NCBI GenBank assembly: GCA_021802125.1
Contig: JAKAAX010000007.1
Span: 8,983 to 72,982, forward strand
DNA: 64,000 bases
From: Thermoplasmata archaeon
GTDB lineage: Archaea; Thermoplasmatota; Thermoplasmata; Lutacidiplasmatales; UBA184
Direction of reading: 5' to 3'
Under the pieces are notes generated by a model, which saw only the letters and a program-made list of their open reading frames with translations, had not been told where the DNA came from and ran no database searches. The position numbers were made by a program, and so were the translations under genes. Shown piece after piece: positions 1 to 49,852 of this stretch. Each line of letters begins with the position of its first letter. The stretch's first letter is position 1.

Positions 1-3000
1 GTCCCGCCGGAGGAGGTTGCCGTCAGCACGACGGTCCATCCCACGTGGGTGCTCGTGGTGTTGGCGGCGAGCGCCACGCTCGGAGGAGCGTTCACGGTCA
101 GGGTCTCGACCGCCGTGGTCGACCTCCCCGAGAGGGAGTCCGTCACCGTCACCTGGACCGCGTAGGTGCCGGCGGAGGTGGCGTCGAACGGGTAGGAGAG
201 CGCGCTCGCGCCTGGGGCGGTCCAGGTCGCACCGTTGAGCGTCCAGGCGAGCGTGTAGGGCGAGAGGCCCCCGGAGACGGAGACGTTGAACCAGGCGCTC
301 ATCCCCAGGTCCACCGTGGCCTGGGACAGCGCGAGGGAGGCCGAGAGGGGAGCGGCGACCACGACGGGGACGGAGGCGGAGCGCGCCACGTGGCCCAGCG
401 CATCCATCACGGTCACGTTCACCGTGTAGGTCCCCGGCGTGGAGCTCGAGAAGGAGAAGGAGGACCCTGTGGCCCCCGACTGCACCGCGCCGTTCACGAA
501 CCAGAGGTACGTCGCGGGCGGGGCACCTCCGTAGGAGGTGGCCGTGAAGGGAAGCGAAGCCCCCGGGGCGACCGAGGAGGGAGCGGAGGGGGAGATCGCC
601 ACCGAGATCGAGGGGTAGACCGTGGCGGAGACGTTCACCCAGAGGATCCCGGAGTGCGAGTCGGCCACGCGGACGGTCAGGCGGTCGGAGCCCGGGCCCG
701 TCGGGACGAACGTGTAGGAGGCGGAGGTGGCCCCGGCGATCGGGGTGAGGTTCAGGTACCACTGGTAGGTGTACGGAGCGATCCCTCCGGCCGCGGTGAC
801 CGTGAAAGGCTGCGACATCCCCATGTCCAGGATCACCGCCAGGGGGCTGGCGGATGCGACCAGGGCGGGGAGGGCGACCACCGTGGCGTTGCTCCAGGCC
901 GTGAGAGGACCGGTCGCACCATCCGTCGCGGAGAACCCGACCTGGTAGGTCCCTCCCCGGGCCGGCACGAACCGGTACCCGGTGCAGCTGGTGGCGCCGG
1001 CGATCGCGGAGCCGTTCTGGTACCACTGGCAGGTGTCCGGGCTCGAGCCACCGGTGATCGTGGGCGTGAGCGTCGCAGACTGCCCCGCGTCGATGTTGGA
1101 AGTGGTGGGGCTCACCGAGGCCGTCGGGTCGATGGAGACGACGATCGTGACCGGAGCGGAGGAGCTCCTCCCGCCCAGGCTGTCCACGATCGTCGCGTTG
1201 ATGGTCAGGGTGAGGGCGCTGGTGGCCGCGTAGGCGGTCCCCAGGCAGTTCGAGCCAGCCTGCTGGACCCCGTTCACGTAGTACGTGCACGTGAATCCCG
1301 GCGTTCCCCCCGCGACCGTCCCCGTGACGTTGGCCGTCTCCCCGACGTCCACCTGGGGGGTCCCGCGGGTGAGCGTGAGCGTGGGCAAGGGGTTCACCGT
1401 GACCAGGTCCCACCCCGAGGGCGCTGCCGCGGCGGGGGTCCCGACGCTCGCGTCCCCGGCCACGTAGCAGTAGTACGTGCTGGCGGAGGGGGTCACCGTG
1501 ACCGTGAGCGAGCTCCCCGACAACGTCCCCGAGCTGCACGCCCCGGAGCTGGAGGAGGAAGCGAACCACTGGTAGGTGTAGGCCGGCGTCCCGCCCGACG
1601 CGCTTGCCGTGAGGGTGACCGACTGACCGCTGTCGATGGTCGGGAGCGTGGGCGTGACCGCCCCGGCGACGAGCGCGGGATCCACCGTCACGAGGTTCCA
1701 CGGCGAGGAGGCGTTCGTGGCGGGCGTCCCCAGGCTCGCGTCGGTCGCCACGTAGCAGTAGTAGGTGCTCGCCGCCGGCGAGGACGAGATGGTCGCCGAC
1801 GTCCCGGCCGCCGTCCCCGACCAGCAGGACCCGGTGCCCGAGGTGGAGGAGTACCACTGCTCGGCGTAGGGAGATGTTCCTCCCGTCGGGCTAGCCGTGA
1901 GCGAGATCGACTGGCCCGCATCGATGACCGGGGCCGAGGGGGTCGCTCCCCCGGCCGTCAGCGCCGGGTCCACGGTCAGAAGGTCCCATGTCGAGGAGGC
2001 CGAGGCGGCCGGGGATCCCACGCTCGAGTCTCCCACCACGTAGCAGTAGTAGGTCGAGGAGGCCGGGGACGCGGCGAAGGTCGAGGTCGACGGACCCGCG
2101 GTCCCGGAGGAGCAGGCGCCCGTGCCGGTGGACGAGGAGTACCAATGGTCGGTGTAGGGAGCCGTTCCGCTGGAGGGGTTCGCCGTCAGCGTCAGGGACT
2201 GGCCCACATCGATCGCGGGCGCCGTGGGCGTCACCGCTCCCGCCACCAGCGCCGCGTTCACCGTCACCAGGACCCAGCCGGAGGACGCGCTCGCCACGGG
2301 GGTCCCCTGGCTCGAGTCTCCCACCACGTAGCAGTAGTACGTGTTCGCCGCAGGAGTTGGGGCGAAGGTCGCGCCCGTGCCTCCCGCGGTCCCCGTCGAG
2401 CACGCGCCGGAGCTCGAGGAGGAGGAGTACCACTGGTAGGTGTAGGCGGGAGTTCCCGCCGACGGGTTCGCCGTGAGGGTGATCGTCTGGCCGACGTCGA
2501 TGACCGGGGTGGCGGGGGTGGCCGAGCCCGCGACGAGCGCGGGGTTCACCGTCACGAGGTCCCACGCCGACGACTGGGTCGCCCCGGTGTTGTCCCTCAC
2601 CTGGTAGCAGTAGTACGTGCTCGCGCTCGGCTTCACCGTGGTCGGCGACCCCGTCGCTCCCGCCGTCCCTGCGGTACAGATCCCGGTGTTGCTCGACGAG
2701 CTGAACCAGGAGTAGGTGTAGGGCGCGGTGCCGCCCGACGGGTTCGCCCCCAGAGAGATCGACTGCCCGAGGTCGATGGCGGGGCTGGCGGGTGAGACCA
2801 AGCCTCCCACCAGCGGCTCGTTCACCGTCACCAGGTCCCATGCCGAATACCCCAGGGCCGCGGGGGTCCCCTGGCTCGCGTCGCCCACGGCGTAGCAGTA
2901 GTACGTGTTCACGGTGGGCGAGCTCGTGTAGGACGCGGTGGTCGCCCCCGCGGTCCCCGACGCGCACGTTCCCGTGTTGAGCAGGGAGTAGTACCACTGG

Positions 3001-6000
3001 TACGTGTACGCGGGCGTGCCCCCGGAGGGGTTCGCGGTGAGGGTCACCGACTGCCCCGAGTTGATCGTGGGCGAGTTCGGGGTCGCCGAGCCCGCGACGA
3101 GCGCGGGGTCGACGGTCACCAGGGTCCACGACGACGAGGCGCTCGCCGCCGGGCTCCCGACGCTCGAGTCTCCCACCACGTAGCAGTAGTAGGTGTTCGA
3201 GGCGGGTGAGGCCCCGTCCGTCGAGGTCGTAGGGCCCGGGGTCCCGGACGCGCACGTCCCGGTGTTCGAGGAGGAGGAGTACCACTGGTAGGTGTAGGCG
3301 GGAGTCCCCGCCGACGGGTTCGCTGTGAGGGTGATCGTCTGGCCGACATCGATGACCGGGGTGGCGGGAGTGGCCGAGCCCGCGACGAGCTTGGGATGGA
3401 CCGTCACCAGGTCCCACGCGGAGGAGGAGATCGCCGCGGGAGTTCCCTGGCTCGAATCGCTCGCCACGTAGCAGTAGTAGGTCGTGGCGGTGGGGGAGAT
3501 CGCGTAGGTGGTCGAGGATGGCCCCGCCGTCCCCGACGAACAGGCGCCGCTGTTCGAGGTGGAGAAGTACCACTGGACCGAGTACGGCGCCGTTCCACCG
3601 GAGGGAGCGGAGGTGAGCGTGATGGACTGGCCGCTGTCGATCGCCGGTGCCGGGGGAGACACCGCCCCCGCGGCCAGAGCGGGGTCCACCGTCACGAGGG
3701 ACCAAGCGGTGGAGGAGCTTGCCGCCGGGCTGCCTTGGGCGCTGTCGCCCACGACATAGCAGTAGTAGATGTTGGAGGTGGGCGAGGGCGCGACAGTGGC
3801 CGTGCCGCCGACGCTCGTTCCGGAGCTGCACGCCCCGCTCCCGGTGGTCGAGGAGTACCACAGGTAGGTGTAGGCCGGCGTCCCGCCGGACGGGTTCGAC
3901 GCGAGCGTGATCGACTGGCCACTGTCGATGACCGGAGCCGAGGGCGAGACCGCCCCCGCCGCCAGCGCCACGTTCACCGTCACGGTGTCCACGACGGAGC
4001 ACTTGCTCACGGGGGAGTAGGCGCTGTCGGTCACCCGGTAGGAGTAGGAGGTGGTGGAGCCCGGAGAGACGGAGAGCGTCGCGAACGTCGCCCCTGAGAC
4101 CGACGTGCCGCACGCCGTCCCCGTGAACCACTGGTAGGAGTAGGGGGAAGTCCCGCTGGAGGGGTTCGCCGTCAACGTCAGGGACTGCCCCACGTCGATG
4201 GACGGAGCCGAGGGCGAGACCGGCCCCGCCACCAGCGCGCCGTTCACCGTCACCAGGTCCCATCCGGACGACGCGCTCGCCGCGGGAGTTCCCTGGCTCG
4301 AGTCACCCACCACGTAGCAGTAGTACGCGTTCGCCGCCGGAGTTGTCGCGAAGGTCGAGCTCGTTCCCCCAGGGGTTCCCGTCGAGCACGCCCCGCTGCT
4401 GGAGGCGGAAGAGTACCACTGGTAGGTGTAGGGGGACGTCCCCGCCGACGGGTTCGCCGTGAGCGTGATCGACTGGCCGGCGTCGATCTTCGGCGTCGCC
4501 GGTGACACCGCTCCCGCCGCCAGCGCCGCGTTCACCGTCACCAGGTCCCACGCCGACGTCTGGATCGCCCCGGTGTTGTCCGTCACCTGGTAGCAGTAGT
4601 ACATGTTCGCGGTCGGCGTCACCGTGGTCGGCGACCCCGTCCCTCCCGGCGTCCCCGCCGTGCAGGCCCCGCTGCTGCTGGTCGAGCTGTACCAGATGTA
4701 CGTGTAGGGCGCCGTTCCGCCGGACGGGTTGGCTCCCAGCGAGATCGACTGCCCCGCATCGATGAAGGGGTTGGCGGGCGAGACCGAGCCTCCCACGAGC
4801 GGTCCGTTCACCGTCACCAGGTCCCACGTGGAATACCCCAGGGCCGCGGGGCTCCCCTGGCTCGCGTCCCGCACCGCGTAGCAGTAGTACGTGTTGGCCG
4901 ACGGGTAGCTCGTGTACGTCGAGGTCGTCGGGCCCGCCGTCCCCGACGCGCACGTCCCGGTGTTCAGAGGGGAGGAGTACCACTGGTACGTGTACGCCGT
5001 CGTCCCTCCGGAGGGGTTCGCCGTGAGGGTCACCGCCTGACCGGCGTTGATGATGGGGGAGTTCGGGGTGGCCGAGCCCGGCACCAGCGCGGGGTTCACC
5101 GTGACCAGGTCCCACGACGTCATCGCGCTCGCCGCCGGGGTCCCCACGCTCGAGTCTCCGACCACGTAGCAGTAGTAGGTGTTCGAGGACGGCGCGGGCA
5201 GGTAGGTCGCGCTCGTCCCTGCGACAGAGCCCGAGGTGCAGAGGCCCGTGTTCACGCTGGAGGAGTACCATTGGTACGTGTAGGCCGCCGTGCCGCTCGA
5301 CGGGTTCGCGGTGAGGGTGATCTGCTGACCGTTGTCGATGATCGGCGTGGTGGGGCTGACCGCTCCGGGCACGAGCGCGGGATTCACGGTGACCAGGTCC
5401 CAGCCGGACACCGCGCTCGCCGCGGGAGTTCCCTGGCTCGAGTCACCCACCACGTAGCAATAGTACAGCGTGGAGGTGGGAGAGACGCTCACGGTGGCGG
5501 TGGTGCCTCCCGGGGTCCCGGCGGAGCAGGATCCCCCGTTGGAGGCGGAGGAGTACCAATGGTAGGTGTAGGTCGGGCTCCCTCCCGACGGGTTCGCGGT
5601 GAGCGAGATGGACTGACCGTTGTCGATGGCGGGAGCGGCGGGGGTGGCCGACCCAGGCGCCAGCGCAGGGTTCACCGTCACCAGGGCCCAGGTCGACGAG
5701 GTCCCCGCCGCGGGGGTCCCACTGCTGCTGTCGGTCAGATGGTAGCAGTAGTACGTGTTCGCGGTGGGCGAGACCACGAAGGTCGCCGTCGCCGGCCCGC
5801 TGGTGCCCGCCGTGCAGATGCCCGTGCCCGCGCTCGCGGAGTACCACTGGTAGTGGTACGCCGGAGTTCCTCCCGAGGGAGCCGAGCTGAGGGTGATCGA
5901 CTGGCCGTTGTCGAGCGTCGGCGCTCCCGGGCTCACCGTGCCCGCGACGAGCGGGACGTTGACCGTCACGAGGTCCCAGGCGGAACTGAGACTTGCGGCG

Positions 6001-9000
6001 GGCGTGCCGCTGCTGCTGTCGGTCAGATGGTAGCAGTAGTACGTGGCGGCGGCCGGGGTGACCGCGAAGGTCGCGGTCGTAGGTCCGGCGGTCCCGGCGG
6101 CGCAGAGCCCGGTGTTGGAGGAGGAAGAGTACCACTGGTACGAGTAGGGAGCGGTGCCTCCCGACGGGTTGGCCGTGAGTGTGATGGACTGGCCGGAGTC
6201 GATGCTGGGGGCTGAGGGAGAGACCGTGCCCACGTTGAGCGCCGGGTTCACCGTGACCAGGCTCCAGGCGGAGACCTGGCTTGCGGCAGGGGTTCCCACG
6301 CTGCTGTCCCCGACGTGGTAGCAGTAGTACGTGTTCGCCGTGGGGGACACGGTGATCGTCGCGGTCGTTGCCCCGACGGTCCCCAGCGTGCACGTTCCGG
6401 AGTTCGAGGAGGAAGAGTACCACTGGTAGGCGTAGGGAACGGTCCCCCCGGAGGGGTTCGCGCTAAGGGTGATGGACTGTCCGCTGTCGATGGTGGCCGC
6501 CGCCGGACCGACCGAGCCGGGGTTGAGGGCAGGGTTCACGGTCACCAGGACCGCGGTCGAGTACGCGACCGCCGCCGGGGTTCCCGCGCTCGCGTCCCCG
6601 TACTGGACACAGTAGTACGTGTTGCCGGTGGGAGCGGGGGAGTAGGTGGACGAGGTCTGACCGGTCACGACGGCGTCGCTCGTGCAGGTGGTCGACGTCC
6701 CGGACCTCCACTGGTAGGTGTAGGTCGGCGTTCCGCCGGTGGGAGCCGAGGAGGAGAGCACGACCGACTGCCCGGTGTCGATCGTCGGCGAGGCGGGGGT
6801 GACCGACCCGGCCGCGAGCGCGGAGTTCACGGTCACCAACACCACGTTCGAGTACGCCACTGCCGCCGGAGCGCCCACGCTCGAGTCCCCGTACTGGACA
6901 CAGTAGTCCGTGGTCGCGGTCGGCGAAGGGGAGTACGTCGTGGTGGTCGCCGAGGGCACCAGCGTGTCGCTCGAGCAGGTGGTGGACGTTCCCGCCCGCC
7001 ACGTGTAGGTGTAGGTGGGAGTGCCGCTCGTGGGGGCGGAGGACGAGAGCGTAATCGTCTGCCCCGTATCGATCGTGGCGGAGCTCGGCGACACCACGCC
7101 CGCCACGAGGGCGCCGTTCACCGTGACCAGCTGCCAGGCGGAAGCCCCTCCCGCGGCAGGGCTCCCCACGCTGCTGTCCCCGACGTGGTAGCAGTAGTAG
7201 ATGGTCGCCGTGGGGGAGACCGTGAGGGAAGAGCTCGTCCCAGCGGCCGTCCCTGCGGTGCACGATCCGCTGCTCGAGCTCGAGGAGTACCACTGGTAAG
7301 TGTACGGTGTCGTTCCTCCCGAGGGGTTCGCGGTCAACACCAGGGACTGGCCGCTGTCGATCGTCACGGTGGAGGGCGACACCGAGCCCGGCACCAGCGC
7401 GGGGTTCACGGTCACCGACACGACGTTCGAGTACACCACCGCCGCCGGAGTACCCACGCTCGAGTCCCCGTACTGGACGCAGTAGTCTGCCGCTACGGTC
7501 GGGGAGGGAGAGTACGTGGAGGTGGTCTGCCCGGAGACCACCGCGTCGTTCGTGCAGGTGGTCGACGTCCCGGCCCTCCACGCATAGGTGTAGGAGGGAG
7601 TGCCGCCCGTGGGCGCAGAAGAGGTGAGGGCGATCGACTGCCCGGTGTCGATCGTCGCCGAGGAGGGCGTCACCGTCCCCGCCACCAGAGCGGAGTTCAC
7701 GGTCACCGACACGACGTTGGAGTAGGCGATCGCCGCGGGAGTTCCCACGCTGGAGTCACCGTACTGGACGCAGTAGTCCGTCGCCACGGTCGGGGACGGA
7801 GCGTAGGTCGAGGTGGTCTGCCCGGCGACCACCGTGTCGCTCGAGCACGTGGTGGACGCGCCCGAGCGCCACTCGTAGGAGTACGCGAGGGTCCCTCCCG
7901 TGGGAGCGGAGGAGGTCAGGGTGACCGTCTGCCCGGTGTCGATCGCGGCCGAGGAGGGGGTGACCGCACCGGCGACAAGCGCCGCGTTGACCGTGACCAG
8001 TACCACGTTCGAGTAAGCGACCGCGACCGGTGTCCCCTGGCTCGCGTCCCCGTACTGGACGCAGTAGTAGGTGGTCGAGGTCGGGGACGGGGAGTAGACG
8101 GAGGTCGTCTGCCCGGAGACCGCCGTGTCGCTCGAGCACGTGGCCGACGCGCCCGCCCGCCACGCGTAGGTGTACGTCGGGGTCCCGCCGCTGGGCGAGG
8201 TCGAAGAGAGCGCGATCATCTGCCCCGTATCGATGCTCGCCGAGGCAGGGGACACCGTCCCCGCGACCAGCGCGGGGTTCACGGTCACCAGCACCACGTT
8301 CGAGTAGGCCACCGCCGGGGGAGTTCCCACGCTCGAGTCCCCGTACTGCGCACAGTAGTACGTGCTGGCGGTCGGGGACACGAGGTAGGTCGCGCTGGTC
8401 TGCCCGGAGACCACCGTGTCGCTCGTGCACGTGGCGGACGTCCCCGACCGCCAGGCGTAGGTGTAGGTCGAGGTCCCGCCGCTGGGCGCCGTCGAGGAGA
8501 GCGTGATCGTCTGGCCGGAGTCGATCGTCGCCGAGGAAGGGGTCACCGTTCCCGCCGCGAGCGCGGAGTTCACGGTCACCAGCACCACGTTCGAGTACGC
8601 GACTGCGGTGGGAGTTCCCACGCTCGAGTCCCCGAACTGGACACAGTAGTACGTCGCAACGGTGGGGGACGGGGAGTAGGTCGAGGTGGTCTGGCCCGAC
8701 ACCGCCGTGTCCACCGTGCACGTGGCCGACGTCCCGGACCGCCACTGGTAGGTGTAGGAGAGAGTGCCGCCCGTCGGCGCGGAAGAGGTGAGGGCGATCA
8801 ACTGCCCGGTATCGATCGTCGGCGAGGCGGGGGTGACCGAACCGGCCACCAGCGCGGGGTTCACGGTCACCAACACCACGTTGGAGTAGACCACCGCCGC
8901 GGGCGTTCCCTGGCTCGCGTCGCCGTACTGGACACAGTAGTAGGTGTTCGCCGTGGGGGCGGGCAGGTAGCTGGTGGAGGTCTGTCCCGAGACCACCGCG

Positions 9001-12000
9001 TCGCTCGCACAGGTGGTGGACGTCCCGGCCCGCCACGCGTAGGTGTAGGAGGGAGTGCCGCCCGTCGGGGCCGAAGAGGAGAGGGAGATCGACTGCCCGT
9101 TGTCGATCGCGGCGGAGGAGGGGGTGACCGCGCCGGCGACCAGCACCGTGTTGACGGTCACCTGTACCACGTTCGAGTAGGCGACCGCGGTCGGGGTCCC
9201 CAAGCTCGCGTCCCCGTACTGGACGCAGTAGTACGTGGTCGTGGTGGGGGACGGGGTGTAGGTCGAGGCGGTCGACCCGGAGACCGCGGTGTCGCTCGTG
9301 CACGTGGCCGACGCCCCGGACCGCCACTGGTAGTTGTAGGAGGGAGTGCCGCCCGTCGGAGCGGCAGAGGTGAGGAGGATCGACTGTCCGCTGTCGATCG
9401 TCGCCGAGGAGGGCGTGACCGTCCCCGCCACCAGAGCGGAGTTCACGGTCACGAGCACCACGTTGGAGTACACCACCGCCGTGGGAGTTCCCACGCTGGA
9501 GTCACCGTACTGGACGCAGTAGTCCGTCGCCGCCGTCGGGGAGATGGTGTAGGTCGTGGTGGTCTGCCCCGAGACCAGAGCGTCGCTCGCGCACGTGGAG
9601 GAGGTCCCCGAGCGCCACGCGTAGGTGTAGGAGGGTGTGCCGCCCGTGGGGGCCGCAGAGGTGAGGGTGATCGATTGCCCGGTGTCGATGGCCGGCGAGG
9701 CGGGGGTGACCGAACCGGCCACCAGGGTCGGGTTCACCGTCACCAGTACCACGTTCGAGTAGGCGACCGCCGCGGGAGTTCCCGAGCTTGAATCCCCGTA
9801 CTGAACGCAGTAGTACGTGCTAACGGTCGGGGATACCGCGTAGGTCGAACTGGTCTGACCGGAGACAGCCGTATCCCCCGTGCACGTGGCGGACGCCCCC
9901 GACCGCCACGCATAGGTGTACGTCGGGGTTCCGCCGCTGGGCGCCGTCGAGGAGAGCGTGATGGTCTGGCCGTAGTCGATCGTTGCCGAGGAGGGCGTGA
10001 CCGTCCCTGCGACCAGAGCGGAGTTCACGGTCACCGTCACGACGTTGGAGTACGCCACCGCCGTCGGGGTTCCCGCGCTCGCGTCCCCGTACTGGACGCA
10101 ATAGTCCGTGGTCACGGTCGGGGCCGGAGTGTAGGTCGAGGTGGTCTGCCCGGCGACCGCCGTGTCACTCGCGCACGTGGAGGAGGTTCCCGACCGCCAC
10201 GCGTAGGTGTACGTCGGGGTCCCGCCGCTGGGCGAGGTCGAGGTGAGCAGGATCGACTGACCGCTGTCGATCGTCGCCGAACTGGGCGACACCGCGCCCG
10301 CGGCGAGGGCGCTGTTCACCGTGACCGTGTCACCGGCGGAGCATTTGTAGTTCGGAGACCCCAGGCTCGTATCGGTGACCTTGTACGAGTACGTGGTCGT
10401 CGCCGTAGGGTTGGCCGCGTAGGTCGACGCGGTCGCCGAGGCGATGGCCGTGTTGCACGCGGATCCGGTGTACCACTGGTACGTGTAGACGGCCGTGCCG
10501 CCGCTGGCCGCGGAGACGAGCGTGATCGTCTGACCGTTGTCGATGGTCGGGGAGGCGGGGGTGATCGCCCCGGCCACCAGTGCGGAGTCCACCGTCAGGG
10601 TGGGCATGGTGACCTTCGCGGTGAAGCCCCAACCGTCGGTCAGCGTCAGGACGATCGCGCTGAAGGTCCCCGTGCCCGACGAGCTCGGAGCGCAGGTGAG
10701 GGGATCGGCGTTGCTCGAGGCGCATCCCGCGGGAAGTCCGGCCCAGGAGTAGGAGTACGCGGCGATGCCCGCGTTCGCCGTGGCGCTCAGGCTCGTCTGC
10801 TCGCCCACGTCGATCAGCGTGGGAGTTGTCGCGGCCGCCGTGAGGTAGGGTCCGTCCAAGCCGATGTACTCGCTCTGCGCGGTGGTCTGGGTCGTGGTGT
10901 AGACAATGTCGTCGCGCCAGGGGGGCACGGCGGACGCCGGGAGGTACGTGGCCATCCCAGGCTCGTAGCCGCCCAGGGCGGCCGTCTGGATCGTCCCCCA
11001 GGCACCCCCCGGTGTCGTCGCCGCGGTCACCACGAGAAGGGCGGAGGGGTTCTGCCATGCCACGAAGGGCGCGGCACCGGCGCCCTCCACCGTGATCGCG
11101 GAGAGCCCGGCGCCCGTGACGCTCCCGTCCGGAGAGGGCCCGGTGGTGGGAGCACTAGCGAAATCGTTCGTGGAATAGGCGTACTGGATGTCGAAGCTGG
11201 TGGGCGTGGTGGTCGTGTCCAGGATGTAGGTGAGCGCGACGTTGGTGCCGGAAGGGGCGTAGGCGATGTCCCCCTCGACCGCCTCGATCGGTACGGAGTT
11301 GTAGGTGGTGCTGAACGCATGCGTCGCCACCACCATCGGGCCGTATGTGATGGCGGAGAAGTCCGTGGTGCTGACGATGACGTCCTGGTACCAGTTGGCA
11401 GGTGTGGCATCCGAAACCCCGAGGGAGACCGCGCAGGAGGCGACCGCGAGGCTGCACTCCAGAGATTCCGCCCCCACGTAGTAGCAGTTGGCGGTGGCAC
11501 AACCTCCGACCTGGGTGAGGGTGTACCCGTAGGTCGCCTTGAACGTCGTGCCGCTCGTCCAGACGTCGAACATGAATCCGAAGTTCGCGCAGGTCGACGA
11601 GGGATAGTCCCCCCAGGCGCCCACGAGGAGGTTCCCGGCGTTGTCGAAGGCCGCAACCGGGGCGACAATACCGAAATTGGCGCCGAACCCGGCCCACAGC
11701 GTACCCACGCTGCACATCGTGCCGTACGCCGTGTCCCCGGTCGCCGCGCTCCAGCTCCCGGTCGTGGCCGACCCACCGTAGTTGGTCGCGCACGTGTGGT
11801 AGTAGTCCCCGTAATTCACCGTCGTGACGGAACTGATCGCCAGGTAGACGATGCAAACGTCGCTCGCTGTCGGCGTTGCGACGATGGTCGGACTGACCAG
11901 CTCGCACGTGCCGCTCCCCCCGCCCGTCGTGCAGTAGGTCCCGGTGTAGGCCGCGGCGATGTACTGGACCGTGAAGCTGGTCCCGCCGTTGAGGCTCTTC

Positions 12001-12767
12001 GCCGAGTAGATCCCCCAGCCCGTGGCTGAGACGTCGGAGGAGAAGGCGACGTAGATGTTCCCCGAGGTGTCCTCGGTGATGCTCGGGCCCTGATAGGGCG
12101 CGTTGACCGGCCCACCGCTCGCTTGGCCCGAGACCCCGATGTCGGTGCCCGCGCTATAACCGGTGGATGGGACACCCGGCCCCGCCACGCCACCGCTTCC
12201 TTGGGGAGAGGCGAGGGGTGCGGCCAGCGGGTTGGGGAGAACGGAGTTGAGGGGGGAAGGTGCGGAGGAGCCGGGGGTGGCGGCCACAGGGGCGAGACCC
12301 TTGGAGGCGGTCGAAGGGTCAGGTGCGGGGATCGCGGGAGTGAGCGAGGCGACCGCGGGCGACGAGCTGGTGGGGCCCGACCCCGCCGGCAGGTTCACGC
12401 TGGAGGAGGTCCCTGGCAACCATGGAGCGAGGGCCTGCTCGACCGCAGCCCGCTCGGCCGGGGAGACCGTGGACGGGCCCTGAGCGCCCGTCGTGGACGA
12501 CGGGGCGGTGGGCCCGGATGCTCCAAGCCCGGAGGGGGCCTGGAACGCAGCTCCGTTGGGGGGGGTAGCCGGCGAAAGGTGGAGGGGGCTCGTCGTGGGG
12601 TTGGTTGGGGCGGCCGAGCCCGAGAATGGGACCACGAGGCCCAGGCTCGAGCCCAGGACCAGCGAGACCAGGACGACCAGTAGGGGGACTCCTGTCCGGG
12701 AGATGGCGGCGCGGCCCCCGCGCGCTCCAGCTCCCGACCGAGAGTCTGCAACCCCACGCCGACCCAT
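1..12767 (-). CDS. Giant secreted/cell-surface protein, 5'-complete and 3'-truncated by the window edge (at least 4255 codons). Order: N-terminal signal/anchor helix, P/S/T-rich linker, Cys-rich globular region, then about 35 tandem Ig-like/PKD-like modules.
   Basis: Absent from the supplied ORF track. In the minus frame whose codon first bases fall on coordinates = 2 (mod 3), TAA at 12771-12773 is followed by ATG at 12767. No stop appeared in any stretch I hand-translated down to position 1, and no track ORF uses this frame anywhere in 1-12767. Translation begins MGRRGVADSRSGAGARGGRAAISRTGVPLLVVLVSLVLGSSLGLVVPFSGSAAPTNPTTSPL. Later come repeated VNSALVAGTVTPSSATIDSGQSI.LTS.APSGGTP.YTYAWRSG...YCVQYGDSS modules and LVTVNAALAAGAVSPATPKIDAGQSITLTANPSAGTSPYTYQWYSS...YYCYVVGDSS modules. 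Near position 1 the modules are PKD-like: FDATSAGTYAVQVTVTDSLSGRSTTAVETLTVN. Third codon positions are almost all G/C in this frame. Confidence 0.85.
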   Translation of the reverse strand, partial: MGRRGVADSRSGAGARGGRAAISRTGVPLLVVLVSLVLGSSLGLVVPFSGSAAPTNPTTSPLHLSPATPPNGAAFQAPSGLGASGPTAPSSTTGAQGPSTVSPAERAAVEQALAPWLPGTSSSVNLPAGSGPTSSSPAVASLTPAIPAPDPSTASKGLAPVAATPGSSAPSPLNSVLPNPLAAPLASPQGSGGVAGPGVPSTGYSAGTDIGVSGQASGGPVNAPYQGPSITEDTSGNIYVAFSSDVSATGWGIYSAKSLNGGTSFTVQYIAAAYTGTYCTTGGGSGTCELVSPTIVATPTASDVCIVYLAISSVTTVNYGDYYHTCATNYGGSATTGSWSAATGDTAYGTMCSVGTLWAGFGANFGIVAPVAAFDNAGNLLVGAWGDYPSSTCANFGFMFDVWTSGTTFKATYGYTLTQVGGCATANCYYVGAESLECSLAVASCAVSLGVSDATPANWYQDVIVSTTDFSAITYGPMVVATHAFSTTYNSVPIEAVEGDIAYAPSGTNVALTYILDTTTTPTSFDIQYAYSTNDFASAPTTGPSPDGSVTGAGLSAITVEGAGAAPFVAWQNPSALLVVTAATTPGGAWGTIQTAALGGYEPGMATYLPASAVPPWRDDIVYTTTQTTAQSEYIGLDGPYLTAAATTPTLIDVGEQTSLSATANAGIAAYSYSWAGLPAGCASSNADPLTCAPSSSGTGTFSAIVLTLTDGWGFTAKVTMPTLTVDSALVAGAITPASPTIDNGQTITLVSAASGGTAVYTYQWYTGSACNTAIASATASTYAANPTATTTYSYKVTDTSLGSPNYKCSAGDTVTVNSALAAGAVSPSSATIDSGQSILLTSTSPSGGTPTYTYAWRSGTSSTCASDTAVAGQTTSTYTPAPTVTTDYCVQYGDASAGTPTAVAYSNVVTVTVNSALVAGTVTPSSATIDYGQTITLSSTAPSGGTPTYTYAWRSGASATCTGDTAVSGQTSSTYAVSPTVSTYYCVQYGDSSSGTPAAVAYSNVVLVTVNPTLVAGSVTPASPAIDTGQSITLTSAAPTGGTPSYTYAWRSGTSSTCASDALVSGQTTTTYTISPTAATDYCVQYGDSSVGTPTAVVYSNVVLVTVNSALVAGTVTPSSATIDSGQSILLTSAAPTGGTPSYNYQWRSGASATCTSDTAVSGSTASTYTPSPTTTTYYCVQYGDASLGTPTAVAYSNVVQVTVNTVLVAGAVTPSSAAIDNGQSISLSSSAPTGGTPSYTYAWRAGTSTTCASDAVVSGQTSTSYLPAPTANTYYCVQYGDASQGTPAAVVYSNVVLVTVNPALVAGSVTPASPTIDTGQLIALTSSAPTGGTLSYTYQWRSGTSATCTVDTAVSGQTTSTYSPSPTVATYYCVQFGDSSVGTPTAVAYSNVVLVTVNSALAAGTVTPSSATIDSGQTITLSSTAPSGGTSTYTYAWRSGTSATCTSDTVVSGQTSATYLVSPTASTYYCAQYGDSSVGTPPAVAYSNVVLVTVNPALVAGTVSPASASIDTGQMIALSSTSPSGGTPTYTYAWRAGASATCSSDTAVSGQTTSVYSPSPTSTTYYCVQYGDASQGTPVAVAYSNVVLVTVNAALVAGAVTPSSAAIDTGQTVTLTSSAPTGGTLAYSYEWRSGASTTCSSDTVVAGQTTSTYAPSPTVATDYCVQYGDSSVGTPAAIAYSNVVSVTVNSALVAGTVTPSSATIDTGQSIALTSSAPTGGTPSYTYAWRAGTSTTCTNDAVVSGQTTSTYSPSPTVAADYCVQYGDSSVGTPAAVVYSNVVSVTVNPALVPGSVSPSTVTIDSGQSLVLTANPSGGTTPYTYQWYSSSSSSGSCTAGTAAGTSSSLTVSPTATIYYCYHVGDSSVGSPAAGGASAWQLVTVNGALVAGVVSPSSATIDTGQTITLSSSAPTSGTPTYTYTWRAGTSTTCSSDTLVPSATTTTYSPSPTATTDYCVQYGDSSVGAPAAVAYSNVVLVTVNSALAAGSVTPASPTIDTGQSVVLSSSAPTGGTPTYTYQWRSGTSTTCTSDAVVTGQTSSTYSPAPTGNTYYCVQYGDASAGTPAAVAYSTAVLVTVNPALNPGSVGPAAATIDSGQSITLSANPSGGTVPYAYQWYSSSSNSGTCTLGTVGATTATITVSPTANTYYCYHVGDSSVGTPAASQVSAWSLVTVNPALNVGTVSPSAPSIDSGQSITLTANPSGGTAPYSYQWYSSSSNTGLCAAGTAGPTTATFAVTPAAATYYCYHLTDSSSGTPAASLSSAWDLVTVNVPLVAGTVSPGAPTLDNGQSITLSSAPSGGTPAYHYQWYSASAGTGICTAGTSGPATATFVVSPTANTYYCYHLTDSSSGTPAAGTSSTWALVTVNPALAPGSATPAAPAIDNGQSISLTANPSGGSPTYTYHWYSSASNGGSCSAGTPGGTTATVSVSPTSTLYYCYVVGDSSQGTPAASAVSGWDLVTVNPALVPGAVSPTTPIIDNGQQITLTANPSSGTAAYTYQWYSSSVNTGLCTSGSVAGTSATYLPAPSSNTYYCYVVGDSSVGTPAASAMTSWDLVTVNPALVPGSATPNSPIINAGQAVTLTANPSGGTTAYTYQWYSSPLNTGTCASGTAGPTTSTYTSYPSANTYYCYAVRDASQGSPAALGYSTWDLVTVNGPLVGGSVSPANPFIDAGQSISLGANPSGGTAPYTYIWYSSTSSSGACTAGTPGGTGSPTTVTPTANMYYCYQVTDNTGAIQTSAWDLVTVNAALAAGAVSPATPKIDAGQSITLTANPSAGTSPYTYQWYSSASSSGACSTGTPGGTSSTFATTPAANAYYCYVVGDSSQGTPAASASSGWDLVTVNGALVAGPVSPSAPSIDVGQSLTLTANPSSGTSPYSYQWFTGTACGTSVSGATFATLSVSPGSTTSYSYRVTDSAYSPVSKCSVVDTVTVNVALAAGAVSPSAPVIDSGQSITLASNPSGGTPAYTYLWYSSTTGSGACSSGTSVGGTATVAPSPTSNIYYCYVVGDSAQGSPAASSSTAWSLVTVDPALAAGAVSPPAPAIDSGQSITLTSAPSGGTAPYSVQWYFSTSNSGACSSGTAGPSSTTYAISPTATTYYCYVASDSSQGTPAAISSSAWDLVTVHPKLVAGSATPATPVIDVGQTITLTANPSAGTPAYTYQWYSSSSNTGTCASGTPGPTTSTDGASPASNTYYCYVVGDSSVGSPAASASSSWTLVTVDPALVAGSATPNSPTINSGQSVTLTANPSGGTPAYTYQWYYSLLNTGTCASGTAGATTASYTSSPTVNTYYCYAVGDASQGTPAALGYSAWDLVTVNEPLVGGLVSPASPAIDLGQSISLGANPSGGTAPYTYSWFSSSSNTGICTAGTAGATGSPTTVKPSASTYYCYQVRDNTGATQSSAWDLVTVNPALVAGSATPATPVIDVGQTITLTANPSAGTPAYTYQWYSSSSSSGACSTGTAGGTGATFAPTPAANTYYCYVVGDSSQGTPVASASSGWVLVTVNAALVAGAVTPTAPAIDVGQSLTLTANPSSGTAPYTDHWYSSSTGTGACSSGTAGPSTSTFAASPASSTYYCYVVGDSSVGSPAASASSTWDLLTVDPALTAGGATPSAPVIDAGQSISLTASPTGGTSPYAEQWYSSTSGTGSCWSGTAAGTSATISSSPAASTYYCYVATDASLGTPATNASSPWNLVTVDPALVAGAVTPTLPTIDSGQSVTLTASASGGTPAYTYQWFASSSSSGACSSGTLSGSSLTVTVTPSASTYYCYVAGDASVGTPAAAAPSGWDLVTVNPLPTLTLTRGTPQVDVGETANVTGTVAGGTPGFTCTYYVNGVQQAGSNCLGTAYAATSALTLTINATIVDSLGGRSSSAPVTIVVSIDPTASVSPTTSNIDAGQSATLTPTITGGSSPDTCQWYQNGSAIAGATSCTGYRFVPARGGTYQVGFSATDGATGPLTAWSNATVVALPALVASASPLAVILDMGMSQPFTVTAAGGIAPYTYQWYLNLTPIAGATSASYTFVPTGPGSDRLTVRVADSHSGILWVNVSATVYPSISVAISPSAPSSVAPGASLPFTATSYGGAPPATYLWFVNGAVQSGATGSSFSFSSSTPGTYTVNVTVMDALGHVARSASVPVVVAAPLSASLALSQATVDLGMSAWFNVSVSGGLSPYTLAWTLNGATWTAPGASALSYPFDATSAGTYAVQVTVTDSLSGRSTTAVETLTVNAPPSVALAANTTSTHVGWTVVLTATSSGG
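1395..6534 (-). repeat. In-frame tandem array of about 285-nt (95-aa) Ig-like modules (YTYQWY / YYCYV.GD subtype), about 18 copies.
   Basis: The boundary string gttcaccgtcaccaggtcccac (WDLVTVN on minus) or a variant recurs at about 1395, 1685, 1970, 2258, 2545, 2820, 3110, 3395, 3687, 3965, 4246, 4530, 4806, 5095, 5385, 5668, 5957, 6245 and 6534. Confidence 0.85.
6534..10315 (-). repeat. In-frame tandem array of about 291-nt (97-aa) Ig-like modules (AWRSG / CVQYGD subtype). There are 12 copies plus one intercalated module of the other subtype at 7117-7399.
   Basis: The boundary string gttcacggtcac (VTVN on minus) or a close variant recurs at about 6534, 6826, 7117, 7399, 7693, 7984, 8277, 8566, 8860, 9150, 9440, 9730, 10022 and 10315. 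Copies are similar but not identical at the DNA level. Confidence 0.85.
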
Positions 12768-12898
12768 GACTTAGCAGCACAGTCTATAGTGTGCATGAGT
12801 ATATCGGCCGTTCGTTGCCCCGTCGGGGGTCGGAACGATAAGGAACCTGGGGCCAGGGACCCCCCGGACCCCCGTAGCGAAGTTCACGACTTACTCTC

Positions 12899-12905
12899 TA
12901 AATAG
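12899..12905 (+). promoter_or_regulatory. Candidate TATA box (taaatag) for the IscA-like gene.
   Basis: AT-rich heptamer in GC-rich DNA, centred about 28 nt upstream of ATG 12930. This is the spacing typical of archaeal promoters with short or no leader. Confidence 0.4.
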
Positions 12906-12929
12906 CCCGCACCGCCCTTACCGGTTACT

Positions 12930-13304
12930 ATGTCCGGGTCGCTCATCCAGCTCGGTTCTGACATGCCTCCCCCCGCGGAGGTCCACCTCACGGTCACCCC
13001 CACCGCCCGGGAGCAGCTCCTGAAGCTCAGGAGTCAAGCCCACGCGGAGGGGAAGGGGCTTCGGCTCTTCGTCCAGGGCGGGGGCTGCTCGGGCCTGACC
13101 TACGGGATGCAGTTCGACGACGCCTCGGAAGGCGACCAGGTGCTCGAGGTGGGCGAGGGGCTCAAGGTCCTCGTCGACCAGGCGAGCGCCCCGGTGCTGA
13201 ACGGGATCACCGTGGACTTCCTGCTGTCGCTCGAGGCCTCCGGGTTCAAGATCAAGAACCCGAACGCCAAGAGCACCTGCTCCTGCGGCAAGAGCTTCGC
13301 CTAG
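12930..13304 (+). CDS. A-type Fe-S cluster carrier (HesB/IscA/ErpA family).
   Basis: Track ORF, 124 aa. Contains FVQGGGCSGLTYGMQFD and the C-terminal KSTCSCGKSFA (C-x-C-G-x-SF signature of A-type carriers). Confidence 0.9.
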   Translation: MSGSLIQLGSDMPPPAEVHLTVTPTAREQLLKLRSQAHAEGKGLRLFVQGGGCSGLTYGMQFDDASEGDQVLEVGEGLKVLVDQASAPVLNGITVDFLLSLEASGFKIKNPNAKSTCSCGKSFA

Positions 13305-13868: not shown

Positions 13869-14339
13869 ATGGTATCCCGTCTCGAGTCCGCAAAGGTCGA
13901 ACCCCAGCCCGCAGCGAGCGCCTTCGGACTGGAGGTCTCGTCGCCCGCCGTCGACCAGATCAAGGGCCTGCTGAAGGTCCAGAAGCCGGGCATGGCCGTC
14001 CGGGTCTTCGTCCAGATGGGCGGAGGCGGCGGTGGCTGCTGCGGCGGCGGATCCGGTCCCGCCTTCGGGATGGCCTTCGACAAGCCGAAGAACGGCGACG
14101 AGGTCGTGAAGGTCGACGGGGTCAACTTCATCGTGGACCCCTACAGCGTCGAGTTCCTGAACGGGGCCCATGTGGACTTCGTGCAGGAGAACGGCGAGTC
14201 CGGCTTCAAGATCAGCAACCCCACCCTCCCGATGAGCGAGGGGGGCAGCGGCGGCGGATGCGGCTCCTGCGGCGCCAGCGCCGACAACGGCGGCGGATGT
14301 GGGTGCGGCTCTGGCGGCGGTGGCTGCGGCTGCGGTTGA
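13869..14339 (+). CDS. Atypical HesB/IscA-like protein with a Gly/Cys-rich insert and a Gly/Cys-rich C-terminal tail.
   Basis: Track ORF, 156 aa. It has an IscA-like scaffold (LEVSSPAVDQIKGLL, VRVFVQ, DGVNFIVDPYSVEFLNGAHVDF, GFKISNP). The usual GGGCSG is replaced by MGGGGGGCCGGGSG, and the usual CxCGxSF end is replaced by GGSGGGCGSCGASADNGGGCGCGSGGGGCGCG. A TATA-like tttaaata lies at 13831-13838. Confidence 0.75.
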   Translation: MVSRLESAKVEPQPAASAFGLEVSSPAVDQIKGLLKVQKPGMAVRVFVQMGGGGGGCCGGGSGPAFGMAFDKPKNGDEVVKVDGVNFIVDPYSVEFLNGAHVDFVQENGESGFKISNPTLPMSEGGSGGGCGSCGASADNGGGCGCGSGGGGCGCG

Positions 14340-39447: not shown

Positions 39448-40158
39448 CTAGGGGGCTCGACCCTCCGACTCCTTGACCGGGGTGGGCCCTCGATGGGGGC
39501 TCTCCCCGGTGACCATGTAGATCACCCGCTTCCCGATGTTGACGGCGTGGTCGGCGATCCTTTCCAGGTAGCGGTTGACCAGGAGAAGGTGGGCCCCCAC
39601 CTCGGGCTCGAGCGAACGCTCCTTCATGCCGAGGACGAGCGCCTGGAAGACCTCGTCGTGGAGGTCGTCCACCGAGTCGTCGAACCGGGACATGTCCTTG
39701 ACCGACTCCGCGTCGCGCGTCATGAACGCGCGGATCGCCGTGTCCACCATGTGGATCGTCAGGTCTCCCATCCGTACGAGCTGGCTCATCTGAGGTGGGT
39801 TTCCGCCGTGGAGCTTTCGAAGCTCGACCTCCGCCTCGGTGATGTCCCGGGCGTAGCGCCCGATCCGGTCGAGGTCCGTCGTGATCTCCAGGCAGGTGGT
39901 GATCGTCCGAAGGTCGCGCGCGACCGGGGCGTGGAGCGCGATCAGGTCCACGCAGGTCTTCTCCACGATGACCTGGAGCGCGTAGATCTCCTTGTCGAGG
40001 GTGGCGACCTCCTCGGCTTCCGCGACCTCGGCCCGCTGCATCCCGTCCATCGCCTTTCGGATGGCCAGTTCGGAGAGGTCCGCCAGCGTGCGGACATCCT
40101 CGTTCAGCCGGTCGAGCCCCTGTCCCAGGGCCTTGCGGCCTCCTTCCACGCCTCTCAT
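39448..40158 (-). CDS. phoU: Phosphate transport system regulator PhoU.
   Basis: Lower part of track ORF 39448..41040, from the ATG at 40158 (ATGA overlap with the pstB stop). It has two PhoU repeats with [12 protein letters not shown] and [13 protein letters not shown]. Confidence 0.9.
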
Positions 40159-41102
40159 CCGAACCTCCCCGTGATGTAGTTCTCCGTGAGCTTCTCCTTC
40201 GGCTGCTCGAAGACCCGCTTCGTCGTGTCGAACTCGACCAGCCGACCTTGGTACATGAACGCCGTAAGGTCCGCGACCCGCGCTGCTTGCTGCATGTTGT
40301 GCGTGACGATGACGACCGTGTAGTCGCTCTTCAGTTCGAAGATGAGGTCCTCGACCCGCTGGGTCGCGACCGGGTCCAGGCTCGACGTGGGTTCGTCCAT
40401 GAGCAGCACGCGCGGGCTCACGGCGAGGGCGCGGGCGATGCACAGACGCTGCTGCTGTCCGCCAGACAGCGTGAGGGCTGGTCGGTCGAGCGCCTCCTTC
40501 ACCTCGTCCCAGAGCCCCGTTCTTCGGAGGGAGGAGACCACCGCCTTCTCGACGGTGTCCTCCGACTCGCCGTCCAGCCTCAGCCCGAACGCCACGTTCT
40601 CGAAGACCGAGGTGGGGAAGACCGTCGGGCGCTGGAAGACCATCCCGATCCTTCGGCGGACGAGCACGGGATTGACCTGGGCGCCGTAGATGTCCTGCCC
40701 CAGGTAGCGGACCGTCCCCTTGACCTGCAGGTGGTGAAGCTCCACCATCCGGTTCATGGACCGAAGGAGCGTCGTCTTGCCGCAGCCCGACGGCCCGATG
40801 ATCGCGGTGACCTTGCCGACGGGGATGTGCAGGCTCACGTCGCTGATGAGCGGCTTGTTCCGGGCCAGGACCGATAGCCGATCGATGGCGAGGATGATCT
40901 CCCCGCGGTCCTCGGAGGCTGCGGCGATGGGGGAAGTGGCCGCCCGAGGGGAGCCGGCCGAGAGGGGGGTCCCGCAGCGTCCGCACTTGAGCGGAGCCTC
41001 CGTCCCGGCGGCCGCAACGGGAGCCCCACACTTCGGGCACACGAGCGGGGACGATCCGGCGCTGGACCCACGGGGCACGAGGTTGTCGTTCCTTTCGTTC
41101 AT
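40155..41102 (-). CDS. pstB: Phosphate ABC transporter ATP-binding protein PstB with an about 65-aa N-terminal zinc-ribbon extension.
   Basis: Lower part of track ORF 40155..42005, from the ATG at 41102 (ATGA overlap with the pstA stop). Motifs: [44 protein letters not shown]. The N-terminus is [47 protein letters not shown]. Confidence 0.9.
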
Positions 41103-48021: not shown

Positions 48022-48107
48022 ATGGCCGGGGCGGCCCGCGCGACCCTCGTGTCGACCTCAGGCCCCGAGGCCAGCTCCGTGCTCCCCGTGGGGGGGAGGG
48101 GGGAGAG

Positions 48108-48210: not shown

Positions 48211-48239
48211 ACCGGTCGAGCCGACCCGAAGGAGGGTAT

Positions 48240-49651: not shown

Positions 49652-49852
49652 GAAGGGCTACGCGGCGGCGTGGTCAGAAGGCCGTGGCACTCCTCACGAG
49701 GCTTGACGCCCAGGAGTGGACATGATCGATCCGCGCCGAAGGCGAAAGCCCAATTCCACGCAGAACGGCGCAGGACCGACGCACCTCGCGGTGCTCTCGA
49801 CTTGACAGGATGAACCCTGACAATCGGGCTTGGTCGGGAAGGAGGTTCGGGA

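Follow-up and report, generated by a model that had tools for sequence, protein, structure and literature searches.

Background

Surface proteins of giant size that are built from tandem immunoglobulin (Ig)-like domains are already well known in bacteria and some archaea, and no concept is changed by the further example described here. The SprB proteins are multi-thousand-residue surface filaments. Amongst the archaea, the Nanohaloarchaeota have giant surface proteins known as 'SPEARE' (e.g. SVXNc_0300, 9,409 aa), which carry ~75 Ig domains and have been interpreted as host-binding (PMC10266531). The surface architecture of uncultured Thermoplasmata is almost unknown, and a candidate fibre for attachment to particles or partners is encoded at the left end of the stretch of DNA considered here, 64,000 nucleotides of a Thermoplasmata archaeon (assembly GCA_021802125.1, contig JAKAAX010000007.1) which is referred to as the window. 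The gene is read on the minus strand from an ATG at 12767 and runs off the left edge of the window; its product is probably a type I membrane protein of ~4672 residues that serves in long-reach adhesion or as a fibre of the glycocalyx. An earlier note, written from the sequence alone, had proposed a giant archaeal surface adhesin at this place, and the source of the DNA, a Thermoplasmata archaeon, agrees with the archaeal part of that proposal.

An intact gene at the window edge

When 3..12767 is translated as its reverse complement, the frame runs for 4255 residues and meets 0 stops, which is the uninterrupted run from ATG 12767 to the window edge that had been claimed, and the remaining five frames of the same interval contain 8-175 stops each. 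At the local base composition ~75 stops would be expected in 4255 codons and the probability of finding none is ~1e-33. The start codon is preceded by an in-frame TAA two codons upstream (TAA GTC ATG). The GC content at the three codon positions (GC1/GC2/GC3) is 0.52/0.67/0.91, with GC3 lying between 0.84 and 0.94 in every ~1 kb segment without exception, and this comparison of codon positions, which the earlier note had proposed, speaks for the giant-gene frame. The window as a whole has a GC content of 68.8%, and ~69% has been reported for the acid-soil order Lutacidiplasmatales (PMC9287336), which by this agreement in GC content is a candidate lineage for the archaeon.

The gene is missing from the list of open reading frames (ORFs) because the lister skips ORFs that run off the source, and start-to-stop ORF lists are in general blind to genes crossing a window edge. 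Those ORFs that are listed over the gene are antisense or off-frame, including one of 1158 aa at 6315-9791 (+), and the open stretch of the plus frame that holds it consists of 24% Arg and 23% Gly. The description of the gene as hidden holds in part: the ORF track does not see it, an artefact of the edge, whereas the public annotation already contains a call of 4479 aa.

This call is on contig DAIFFM010000037.1 (GCA_027376595.1; L001), to which the window is identical over 20,375/20,375 compared nucleotides, so that the source is this contig of 151,574 bp or a sequence identical to it. It begins at an internal GTG, codon 194 of the frame, and 4479 + 193 gives the 4672 residues of the full protein. 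The ATG is used as the start in the annotations of three other metagenome-assembled genomes (MAGs; L003, L004 and L006), and the first 193 codons are in frame and free of indels in five orthologous fragments (L002-L006). In comparison with the most diverged MAG, GCA_027314165.1, the ratio of nonsynonymous to synonymous substitution rates (dN/dS) comes to 0.28 in the signal region and to 0.49 in the linker. Since the first 193 codons are kept in the orthologs with these ratios, ATG 12767 is the correct start. The public call in GCA_027376595.1 drops the signal peptide and the linker (window 12189-12767, -), and in the same contig a 68-aa plus-strand ORF at 12277-12483 is called over the true N-terminal coding region, a spurious antisense call. 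The deposited start needs correction, and the gene is of use for annotation as well as for the biology of archaeal cell surfaces.

The same pairwise comparison puts the dN/dS of the Ig and PKD parts at 0.25-0.31 and that of head and linker at ~0.5, set against 0-0.29 for neighbouring genes, or 0.13-0.29 once an Fe-S gene with identical protein is left out. These ratios show purifying selection along the entire gene, with its distal end evolving faster.

The giant gene is genuine and intact in this uncultured, high-GC archaeon. That it could be no real gene, with the frame open by chance because the DNA is GC-rich or produced by repeats that were collapsed or joined chimerically in assembly, is extremely improbable. 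High-GC DNA does give long spurious ORFs, two of the other frames have only 8 and 12 stops, and several other MAG contigs end inside the gene. However, these breaks lie in low-coverage assemblies (1.1-4.8x according to the contig names), and the absence of stops, the GC3, the strong domain matches, the confident module model and dN/dS of at most ~0.5 are not those of a chance frame. Identity between modules at the DNA level is 52-85% and the exact repeats within the gene all stay below 50 nt; in every overlap with the window, independent assemblies show the same collinear order (98.3-100% identical, and 90.7% for a more distant MAG). Because of this divergence of the modules and the agreement of independent assemblies, collapse or chimerism of the array is unlikely and has been rejected as an explanation, and the exact copy number is certifiable by long reads only.

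The C-terminal end

The window covers the first 91% of a gene of ~4672 codons (~14 kb), which extends ~1.25 kb further left, and ~417 C-terminal residues fall outside. The earlier note had proposed leftward extension to find the C-terminus, with a transmembrane (TM) anchor or an archaeosortase signal such as PGF-CTERM as possible endings. Contigs of related MAGs that reach past the window cut (L008, 98% identical; L007, 94% identical) allow this, and a TM anchor is present. After '...VVLTATSSGG' they continue with the remainder of the sixth PKD-like module, a Gly-rich stalk, the TM helix PWWIVVLIVVALIGLALLLLLL, the basic residues RRRKK and a Pro-rich acidic tail of ~310 residues (311), which carries two zinc-ribbon-like CxxCGxxL...CxxCGxxW motifs, CPECGSPLPTARSDCYVCGW and CFICRSELNAEGSCPICGVQW; the frame stops after 'WAEK'. 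No PGF motif occurs in these orthologs and 311 further residues follow the TM helix and RRRKK, so that a PGF-CTERM/archaeosortase anchor has been rejected in favour of a TM helix with a long zinc-ribbon tail, predicted to be cytoplasmic. The Pfam zinc-ribbon matches of the tail are all below cutoff and no recognisable signalling domain is found in it.

The composite model of the protein has 4671 residues, within one residue of the length implied by the gene call on the source contig, a mass of ~462 kDa and an isoelectric point (pI) of ~4. It contains two strong hydrophobic segments only, at aa ~20-50 and aa ~4325-4355. With ~4,670 residues it probably exceeds every other protein encoded in what is a small archaeal genome, and at a genome size of ~2 Mb, which is that of the candidate lineage, ~0.7% of the genome would be taken up by the gene.

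Signal peptide, linker and promoter

The layout that had been described for the N-terminus is borne out, with a hydrophobic segment followed by a Pro/Ser/Thr linker and a Cys-containing globular region (Table 1). The first 55 residues are probably a Sec signal peptide, as predicted from their Arg-rich n-region, hydrophobic stretch and the 'SGSA/AP' that follows, and similar N-terminal hydrophobic segments are found in the family members P0003-P0005 introduced below. Two AT-rich boxes, GATATACT and CTATAGAC, lie 15-40 nt upstream of the ATG in the divergent intergenic region and may form an archaeal promoter with TATA box and B-recognition element (BRE).

The Ig-like array

The bulk of the protein is a regular array of Ig-like modules spaced at 96-97 aa. 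A scan with a hidden Markov model (HMM) built from the modules themselves finds 33 Ig-like domains (E 1e-18 to 1e-44), and Pfam matches the array with Ig_3 (PF13927) at 206 bits (cutoff 30) and with the SprB repeat (PF13573) at 154.6 bits (cutoff 28), the latter in 10 stretches. HMM searches for Ig-like and PKD modules had been suggested earlier, and both Ig_3 and PKD (35 bits, see below) are above cutoff. The array of 'about 35' modules that had been claimed is indeed a long Ig-/PKD-like array, whereas the actual count in the window is 33 Ig-like and 5 complete PKD-like modules.

Structure prediction of a single module, a further suggestion of the earlier note, gave a confident beta-sandwich: the AlphaFold2 model of M17, on an alignment of 27 internal modules, has a predicted local distance difference test score (pLDDT) of 92.2 and a predicted template modelling score (pTM) of 0.82. 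Foldseek places phage capsid decoration Ig domains first (TM-score 0.70-0.72), followed by Ig domains of the CD146/Axl type and PKD domains of AAVR, with TMq between 0.6 and 0.72 over Ig and PKD domains. The best match by sequence profile is likewise a phage protein, the T5 decoration protein (PDB 5lxk, E = 5e-4). The canonical disulfide between B and F strands is not found in the module, as Cys is missing from the B strand ('ITLTAN'), whereas the F-strand 'YYC' is present; the second Cys sits after the C strand ('TGxC'), which suggests a non-canonical disulfide in each module.

The modules fall into subtypes. Subtype A includes, in addition to its main block, M14 and M15, with protein identity of 69-88% inside the subtype, and M13 belongs to subtype B; a third subtype, C (90-91 aa), is made up of M02 and M24, and M01 is divergent. 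Tandem Repeats Finder (TRF) reports an array at 6534-10280 with a period of 291 and 74% matches, and another at 1389-6493 with a period of 288 and 66% matches. A run of three modules appears twice, with DNA identities of 85% (M21/M28), 85% (M22/M29) and 83% (M23/M30), which are at the top of the array beside M04/M09 (85%), and the longest exact DNA repeats of the gene (40-49 nt) lie in or near these two copies. This pattern records how the array grew, by two bursts of tandem amplification, of subtypes A and B, together with a segmental duplication of M21-23/M28-30.

PKD-like modules and sequons

Between the Ig array and the membrane are six PKD-like modules (aa 3793-4310), the sixth being cut by the window edge. 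Pfam PKD (PF00801) matches at 35 bits against a cutoff of 23.5, with its best stretch at aa 4057-4135, and BiPBP_C at 46 bits; the match of these modules to the Ig-module HMM is weak. In total the protein has 39 beta-sandwich domains, 38 of them complete in the window.

The N-x-S/T sequons of N-glycosylation are unevenly distributed. Within the 518-aa PKD-like region, the out-of-window sixth module included, there are 11 where 4.2 are expected, and the 3,156-aa Ig array, which is 33% Ser+Thr, contains 1 where ~30 are expected by composition, a depletion that does not amount to 30 independent events as the modules share ancestry. This may indicate glycosylation only at the base of the fibre, or avoidance of sequons in the Ig modules.

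It is conceivable that the protein is a structural component of the envelope or glycocalyx, forming a glycosylated brush of low charge or a disordered shell on a cell without a paracrystalline S-layer. The ectodomain, with 31% Ser+Thr, 0.9% Lys+Arg and a pI of ~4, would suit such a brush, as would the enrichment of sequons beside the membrane and a GT2 glycosyltransferase gene 1.6 kb off. A conserved, Cys-stabilised head at the distal tip and a conserved zinc-ribbon tail suggest specific contacts at both ends, however, for which a passive coat has no need, and an envelope brush is considered rather unlikely as the principal role, although the roles of brush and adhesin are compatible with each other.

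The head domain

The region between linker and array holds 10 Cys, of which 5 are invariant across the family, and 9 Trp, thus the Cys-rich globular region that the earlier note had recognised is confirmed. Neither Pfam nor NCBIfam nor the PDB (searched with the single sequence and with a profile) has a sequence match to the head, and an NCBIfam scan of the whole giant protein gave no family. An exhaustive HMMER search against 1.84 billion cluster representatives found 16 proteins. One (P0001) is a 100% identical fragment of an ortholog and 5 cover the whole domain at 33-42% identity, and over its aa 3-421 the phmmer E-values of the full-length homologs lie between 2.6e-58 and 1.2e-22; the other matches do not extend past the first ~50 residues, and each consists of several stretches. 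Two weak relatives that were scanned have signatures of BNR/SBBP/GH43-type propellers (BNR_2, BNR_4, GH43). Word-indexed protein searches with aa 1-700, with the head and with a module profile yielded a single fragment, no match and 15 short fragments, respectively, and are uninformative on distribution. The word-indexed search missed the known ortholog, its prefilter of 8,000 candidates having been filled with compositionally similar sequences, and such swamping is likely with other low-complexity surface proteins.

The AlphaFold2 model of the head, built with the five homologs, is all-beta with approximately six units of four strands (pLDDT 56, pTM 0.71). Foldseek with this model matches almost exclusively six-bladed GH33 sialidases (E = 6e-9, probability 1.0, TM-score ~0.45), with 160 matches at E <= 1e-3. 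A sialidase or BNR fold had been amongst those suggested for testing, and the model points to just this fold for the head, in agreement with the sequence links to BNR/SBBP propellers.

With such a fold it could be asked whether the head is an active enzyme, i.e. whether a sialidase/GH33-like or BNR glycoside hydrolase is displayed on the stalk in order to degrade polymers. The top Foldseek matches consist entirely of sialidases from GH33 and lyases related to them, and the weak sequence relatives carry the signatures listed above, yet the sequence of the head makes this most improbable. It has a single Arg, R618, which is invariant in the family (one per 422 residues), and a catalytic Arg triad is impossible because there is only one. 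No FRIP ([FY]R[IV]P) or RIP motif is found in the head, nor the several Asp-boxes of sialidases, with only a degenerate 'SLNGGTSF' in blade 1 and a looser 'STNDFA'; Pfam gives no BNR match to the head and none of the giant protein to any glycoside hydrolase family. The canonical sialidase reading has been rejected on the grounds of the missing triad and FRIP motif, and the head is probably non-catalytic.

A small family with head, stalk and tail

Three of the proteins that share the head, P0002, P0004 and P0005 (1,349-1,592 aa), have the same order of parts: signal peptide, head, PKD/Ig modules, TM helix, RRR and a Pro-rich tail with zinc ribbons. Their modules, several per protein, carry 'GGxxPYxYxW', and Pfam PKD scores 154-155 bits in P0004 and P0005. 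The CxxCGxxL...CxxCGxxW motif is present in two copies in the orthologs of the giant protein, three in P0002, two in P0004 and one in P0005. P0003 has the head in common, with a different C-terminus and no such motif, and P0006 is a fragment. An alignment of the heads has 36 invariant columns, 5 of them Cys. The lengths in the family other than the giant protein are 1,350-1,900 aa. By its sequence the giant protein is thus a member, expanded ~three-fold, of a small unnamed family, and as its relatives have few modules its size arose from the tandem amplification of two Ig subtypes and the three-module duplication. It is a clean case of recent domain-array amplification in a small family.

The neighbourhood of P0002 is archaeal and otherwise housekeeping. 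P0002 (1,592 aa) is directly followed by a 2,770-aa Ig/PKD-repeat protein (L010 15228-23540), and large surface proteins of the P0002/giant-protein type seem to come in pairs.

The conservation of both ends raises the question of whether the protein is a receptor, with the head sensing a ligand or a partner, such as a DPANN symbiont or kin, and the tail relaying the contact inward. The zinc-ribbon motif is kept, in 1-3 copies, in the tails of family members whose heads share only 32-40% identity, the type I layout is that of eukaryotic receptors, and dN/dS in head and linker is 2-3 times that of the neighbouring genes. Against this, the tail has no signalling domain that can be recognised, its zinc-ribbon matches being sub-threshold, the dN/dS is below 1 with no diversifying selection at the given resolution, and a stalk of 39 domains would be inefficient for transmitting a signal; a receptor role is therefore thought to be very unlikely. 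Also a long shot is the broader idea of an undescribed archaeal type I 'head-stalk-tail' family, in which the non-catalytic head would recognise a glycan or a partner cell and the zinc-ribbon tail would couple this inward. If true, archaea would have here a receptor or a system of recognition between cells, e.g. for contact with symbionts or kin in wall-less Thermoplasmata, and under the receptor reading the 33-module stalk would have been amplified to reach past the cell's own glycocalyx.

Proposed function

A long-reach adhesin or glycocalyx fibre is the preferred reading. In such a scheme the ectodomain would be exported by the Sec system and the protein anchored by its C-terminal TM helix. 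The 39 beta-sandwich domains would form an extended, disulfide-stabilised fibre. In SiiE-type adhesins the length per domain is ~3.3-4 nm, and 39 domains of this length give the estimate of ~130-150 nm for the fibre. The PKD modules next to the membrane may be N-glycosylated, and the distal propeller head, having lost the catalytic arginines of sialidases, may be a lectin-like or ligand-binding tip, by which the fibre would hold the cell to particles, to polymers or to its neighbours. A link to a cytoplasmic partner could be made by the conserved zinc-ribbon tail. Cultured relatives of the lineage are without an S-layer (PMC12448462), which is why an adhesion or glycocalyx-fibre role fits the lineage. 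The structural description of the protein is held to be close to certain, and adhesion as its main function is only slightly favoured.

A number of points weigh against this reading. The function is read from architecture, and the neighbouring genes hint at no function for the protein. The C-terminal 417 residues are taken from orthologs that are 94-98% identical and not from the source contig. The local confidence of the head model is low (pLDDT 56, TM-score ~0.45), so the fold assignment denotes consistency with a sialidase/BNR propeller rather than precision. It is also possible, if less likely, that aa 1-55 are an uncleaved signal anchor, which would tether both ends of the protein to the membrane. 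Finally, no synteny or shared operon was found with the closest family member, P0002, whose neighbours differ.

Table 1. Features of the giant gene and of the region upstream of it (window coordinates).
Feature	Position	Strand	Evidence or properties
Part of the giant gene inside the window, codons 1-4255	3..12767	-	0 stops, GC3 0.91
Start, Arg-rich n-region, 20-residue h-region VPLLVVLVSLVLGSSLGLVV and 'SGSA/AP', aa 1-55	12603..12767	-	Hydropathy peak aa 20-50
Pro/Ser/Thr-rich low-complexity linker, aa 56-215	12123..12602	-	18% Pro, 26% Ser+Thr, no Cys
Globular head, predicted sialidase/BNR-fold six-bladed propeller, aa 216-636	10860..12122	-	AlphaFold2 and Foldseek, sequence links
33 tandem Ig-like modules M01-M33, aa 637-3792	1392..10859	-	90-97 aa each, 2 Cys each
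Subtype A block M03-M12, 97 aa, '...YTYAWRSG..TC..YYCVQYGD..AYSNVV.VTVN'	7404..10313	-	TRF, identity
Mostly subtype B, M16-M23 and M25-M33, 96 aa, '...YTYQWYSSSS..G.C..YYCY.VGDSS..W.LVTVN'	1392..6533	-	TRF, alignment
M21-M23, one copy of the three-module duplication	4242..5093	-	DNA identity
M28-M30, second copy of the three-module duplication	2256..3107	-	DNA identity
Five PKD-like modules and first 18 residues of the sixth, aa 3793-4255	3..1391	-	Pfam PKD, BiPBP_C
Divergent intergenic region, 162 bp, giant gene / Fe-S assembly gene	12768..12929	.	Sequence reading

Gene neighbourhood and other features of the window

The earlier note had suggested that the locus encodes the defining cell-surface structure, and this is not reflected in the surroundings, which consist of housekeeping and transport genes. 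The genes around it in the window are those for Fe-S assembly, a MOSC protein, the GT2 glycosyltransferase, an AAA-TPR protein and major facilitator superfamily (MFS) transporters, for an FGGY kinase, an AlaX-like protein and a thiamine pyrophosphate (TPP) enzyme, and for a ClC channel, a pst/PhoU cluster and a glyceraldehyde-3-phosphate dehydrogenase (GAPDH) of the archaeal type. No secretion or surface-assembly operon is found around the giant gene in the window. The divergently read Fe-S assembly protein (12930-13304, +) has exact copies in many public assemblies. A second Fe-S assembly paralog, HesB/IscA-like (13869-14339, +), has Gly/Cys-rich low-complexity insertions, GGGGGGCCGGGSG, and a matching tail, GGGCGSCGASADNGGGCGCGSGGGGCGCG, that to our knowledge have not previously been seen in this family.

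To the left of the window, in related MAGs (L007 3194-7797, L008 2417-5041), the genes downstream of the giant gene are an open frame of 322 codons resembling class-II glutamine amidotransferases (GATase) and a frame of 1193 codons. The latter encodes a type I protein with a signal peptide, a pyrroloquinoline quinone (PQQ)/BamB-like propeller, Ig-like repeats, a TM helix and a long acidic tail on the cytoplasmic side, and there are thus two large surface proteins of the 'propeller + Ig + TM + tail' type close together.

Another type I surface protein, of 696 aa and with no Pfam match, is encoded at 35181-37271 (-). The protein combines a signal peptide and an ectodomain rich in sequons with a single Ig-like module ('ATIDFNQSALLTA...YQW'), a Ser/Gly stalk and a TM helix, after which come basic residues and a tail of poly-Pro. 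Homology of its ectodomain to the head of the giant protein was considered and rejected (hhalign probability 0.1%).

The region 48000-52300 has the lowest GC content of the window (0.61-0.66). It contains a truncated tRNA-like sequence at 48157-48210 (-), which scores 33 bits with the Rfam tRNA model and is not called by ARAGORN, and, 1.6 kb from this, a tRNA-Arg(CCG) at 49850-49927 (-). A 496-aa multi-TM, zinc-ribbon-like ORF without a Pfam match (50378-51868) and a DNA N6/N4 methyltransferase (52294-53268) are also found nearby. The low-GC stretch with its tRNA-like fragment could be the remnant of an integrated element. That the fragment is a duplicated att half-site of the tRNA-Arg is unsupported, the longest word shared by the two being 8 nt.

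The gene at 45892-48021 (+) encodes a permease of the MFS/sugar-transporter family that carries, as a C-terminal fusion, a PhoU_div (DUF47) domain, and it lies next to the pst phosphate-uptake cluster with its two PhoU-domain genes (39448-45545). A fusion of permease and regulator of this kind seems uncommon.

Comparison with known systems

The SPEARE proteins are the closest analogue of the giant protein in architecture, a comparison that does not extend to sequence homology. Both are archaeal, with a Sec signal peptide, one or more N-terminal propellers, a long array of ~100-aa Ig modules, a TM segment, a cytoplasmic part and a pI of ~4 (PMC10266531). They differ in that SPEARE have a cytoplasmic VirB4/TraG-like ATPase and a downstream gene for a partner ATPase, whereas the giant protein has a Pro-rich tail with two zinc ribbons; by Pfam no VirB4/TraG-like ATPase was found in the tail, only sub-threshold zinc ribbons, and the downstream genes are the GATase-like and PQQ-propeller genes. 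Furthermore, the propellers of SPEARE are WD40/PQQ-like, whereas the head modelled here has a predicted sialidase/BNR fold, and the SPEARE host is a DPANN symbiont rather than a Thermoplasmata of the free-living type.

VARTIG of the Thermococcales (arCOG07710; PMC8416519) are also large secreted or membrane Ig proteins of archaea, some with a C-terminal TM helix. They are mostly >500 aa and not multi-thousand, have a hypervariable C-terminal Ig domain (PMC8416519) and come first in an operon that encodes small membrane proteins and is situated in variable islands, unlike the giant gene with its housekeeping neighbours and MAG sequences that are 91-100% identical.

Amongst bacterial proteins, the adhesins of type I secretion systems (T1SS), namely Salmonella SiiE with 53 BIg domains, MpIBP and the LapA-type RTX proteins, are alike (PMC5466336, PMC6272769) in being hundreds of kDa in size, with a rod of tandem Ig domains, a distal ligand-binding region and repeats that have been amplified in tandem. 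These adhesins are exported C-terminus first and stay at the cell through non-covalent contacts or an N-terminal plug; their BIg domains are clamped by Ca2+, and they possess neither a TM helix nor a cytoplasmic tail. In contrast, the giant protein begins with a probable signal peptide, has a pair of Cys in each module and is anchored by a C-terminal TM helix, its head is N-terminal and thus distal, and no RTX/HemolysinCabind match was found in it by Pfam. The likeness to SprB is in the module motif 'GG(T)xPYxYxW', to which the above-cutoff match of PF13573 (154.6 bits) is due. SprB is a protein of Bacteroidota with a C-terminal sorting domain of the type IX secretion system (T9SS) and moves on the gliding track, whereas Pfam found no such T9SS domain in the giant protein, which ends in a TM helix and a 311-aa tail. 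The SprB motif is a feature of one Ig-like subtype and not evidence of orthology.

For a single module, the closest solved structures are the phage decoration Ig domains (T5 pb10, 5lxk; Moo19 and N4, 9d7z and 9e99), with TM-scores of 0.70-0.72, 26-29% identity and the GGTxPYTYxW strand in common. These occur as one to few domains on a capsid and do not have the Cys pair of the module. For the head, the likeness to GH33/BNR propellers is in the predicted fold and in the Asp-box-like 'SLNGGTSF' of blade 1, from which it differs by having no Arg triad, no FRIP motif and no BNR or glycoside hydrolase HMM match, and by its five invariant Cys. The giant protein has a hyper-expanded stalk, a head domain that is rare and uncharacterised, and a conserved zinc-ribbon tail.

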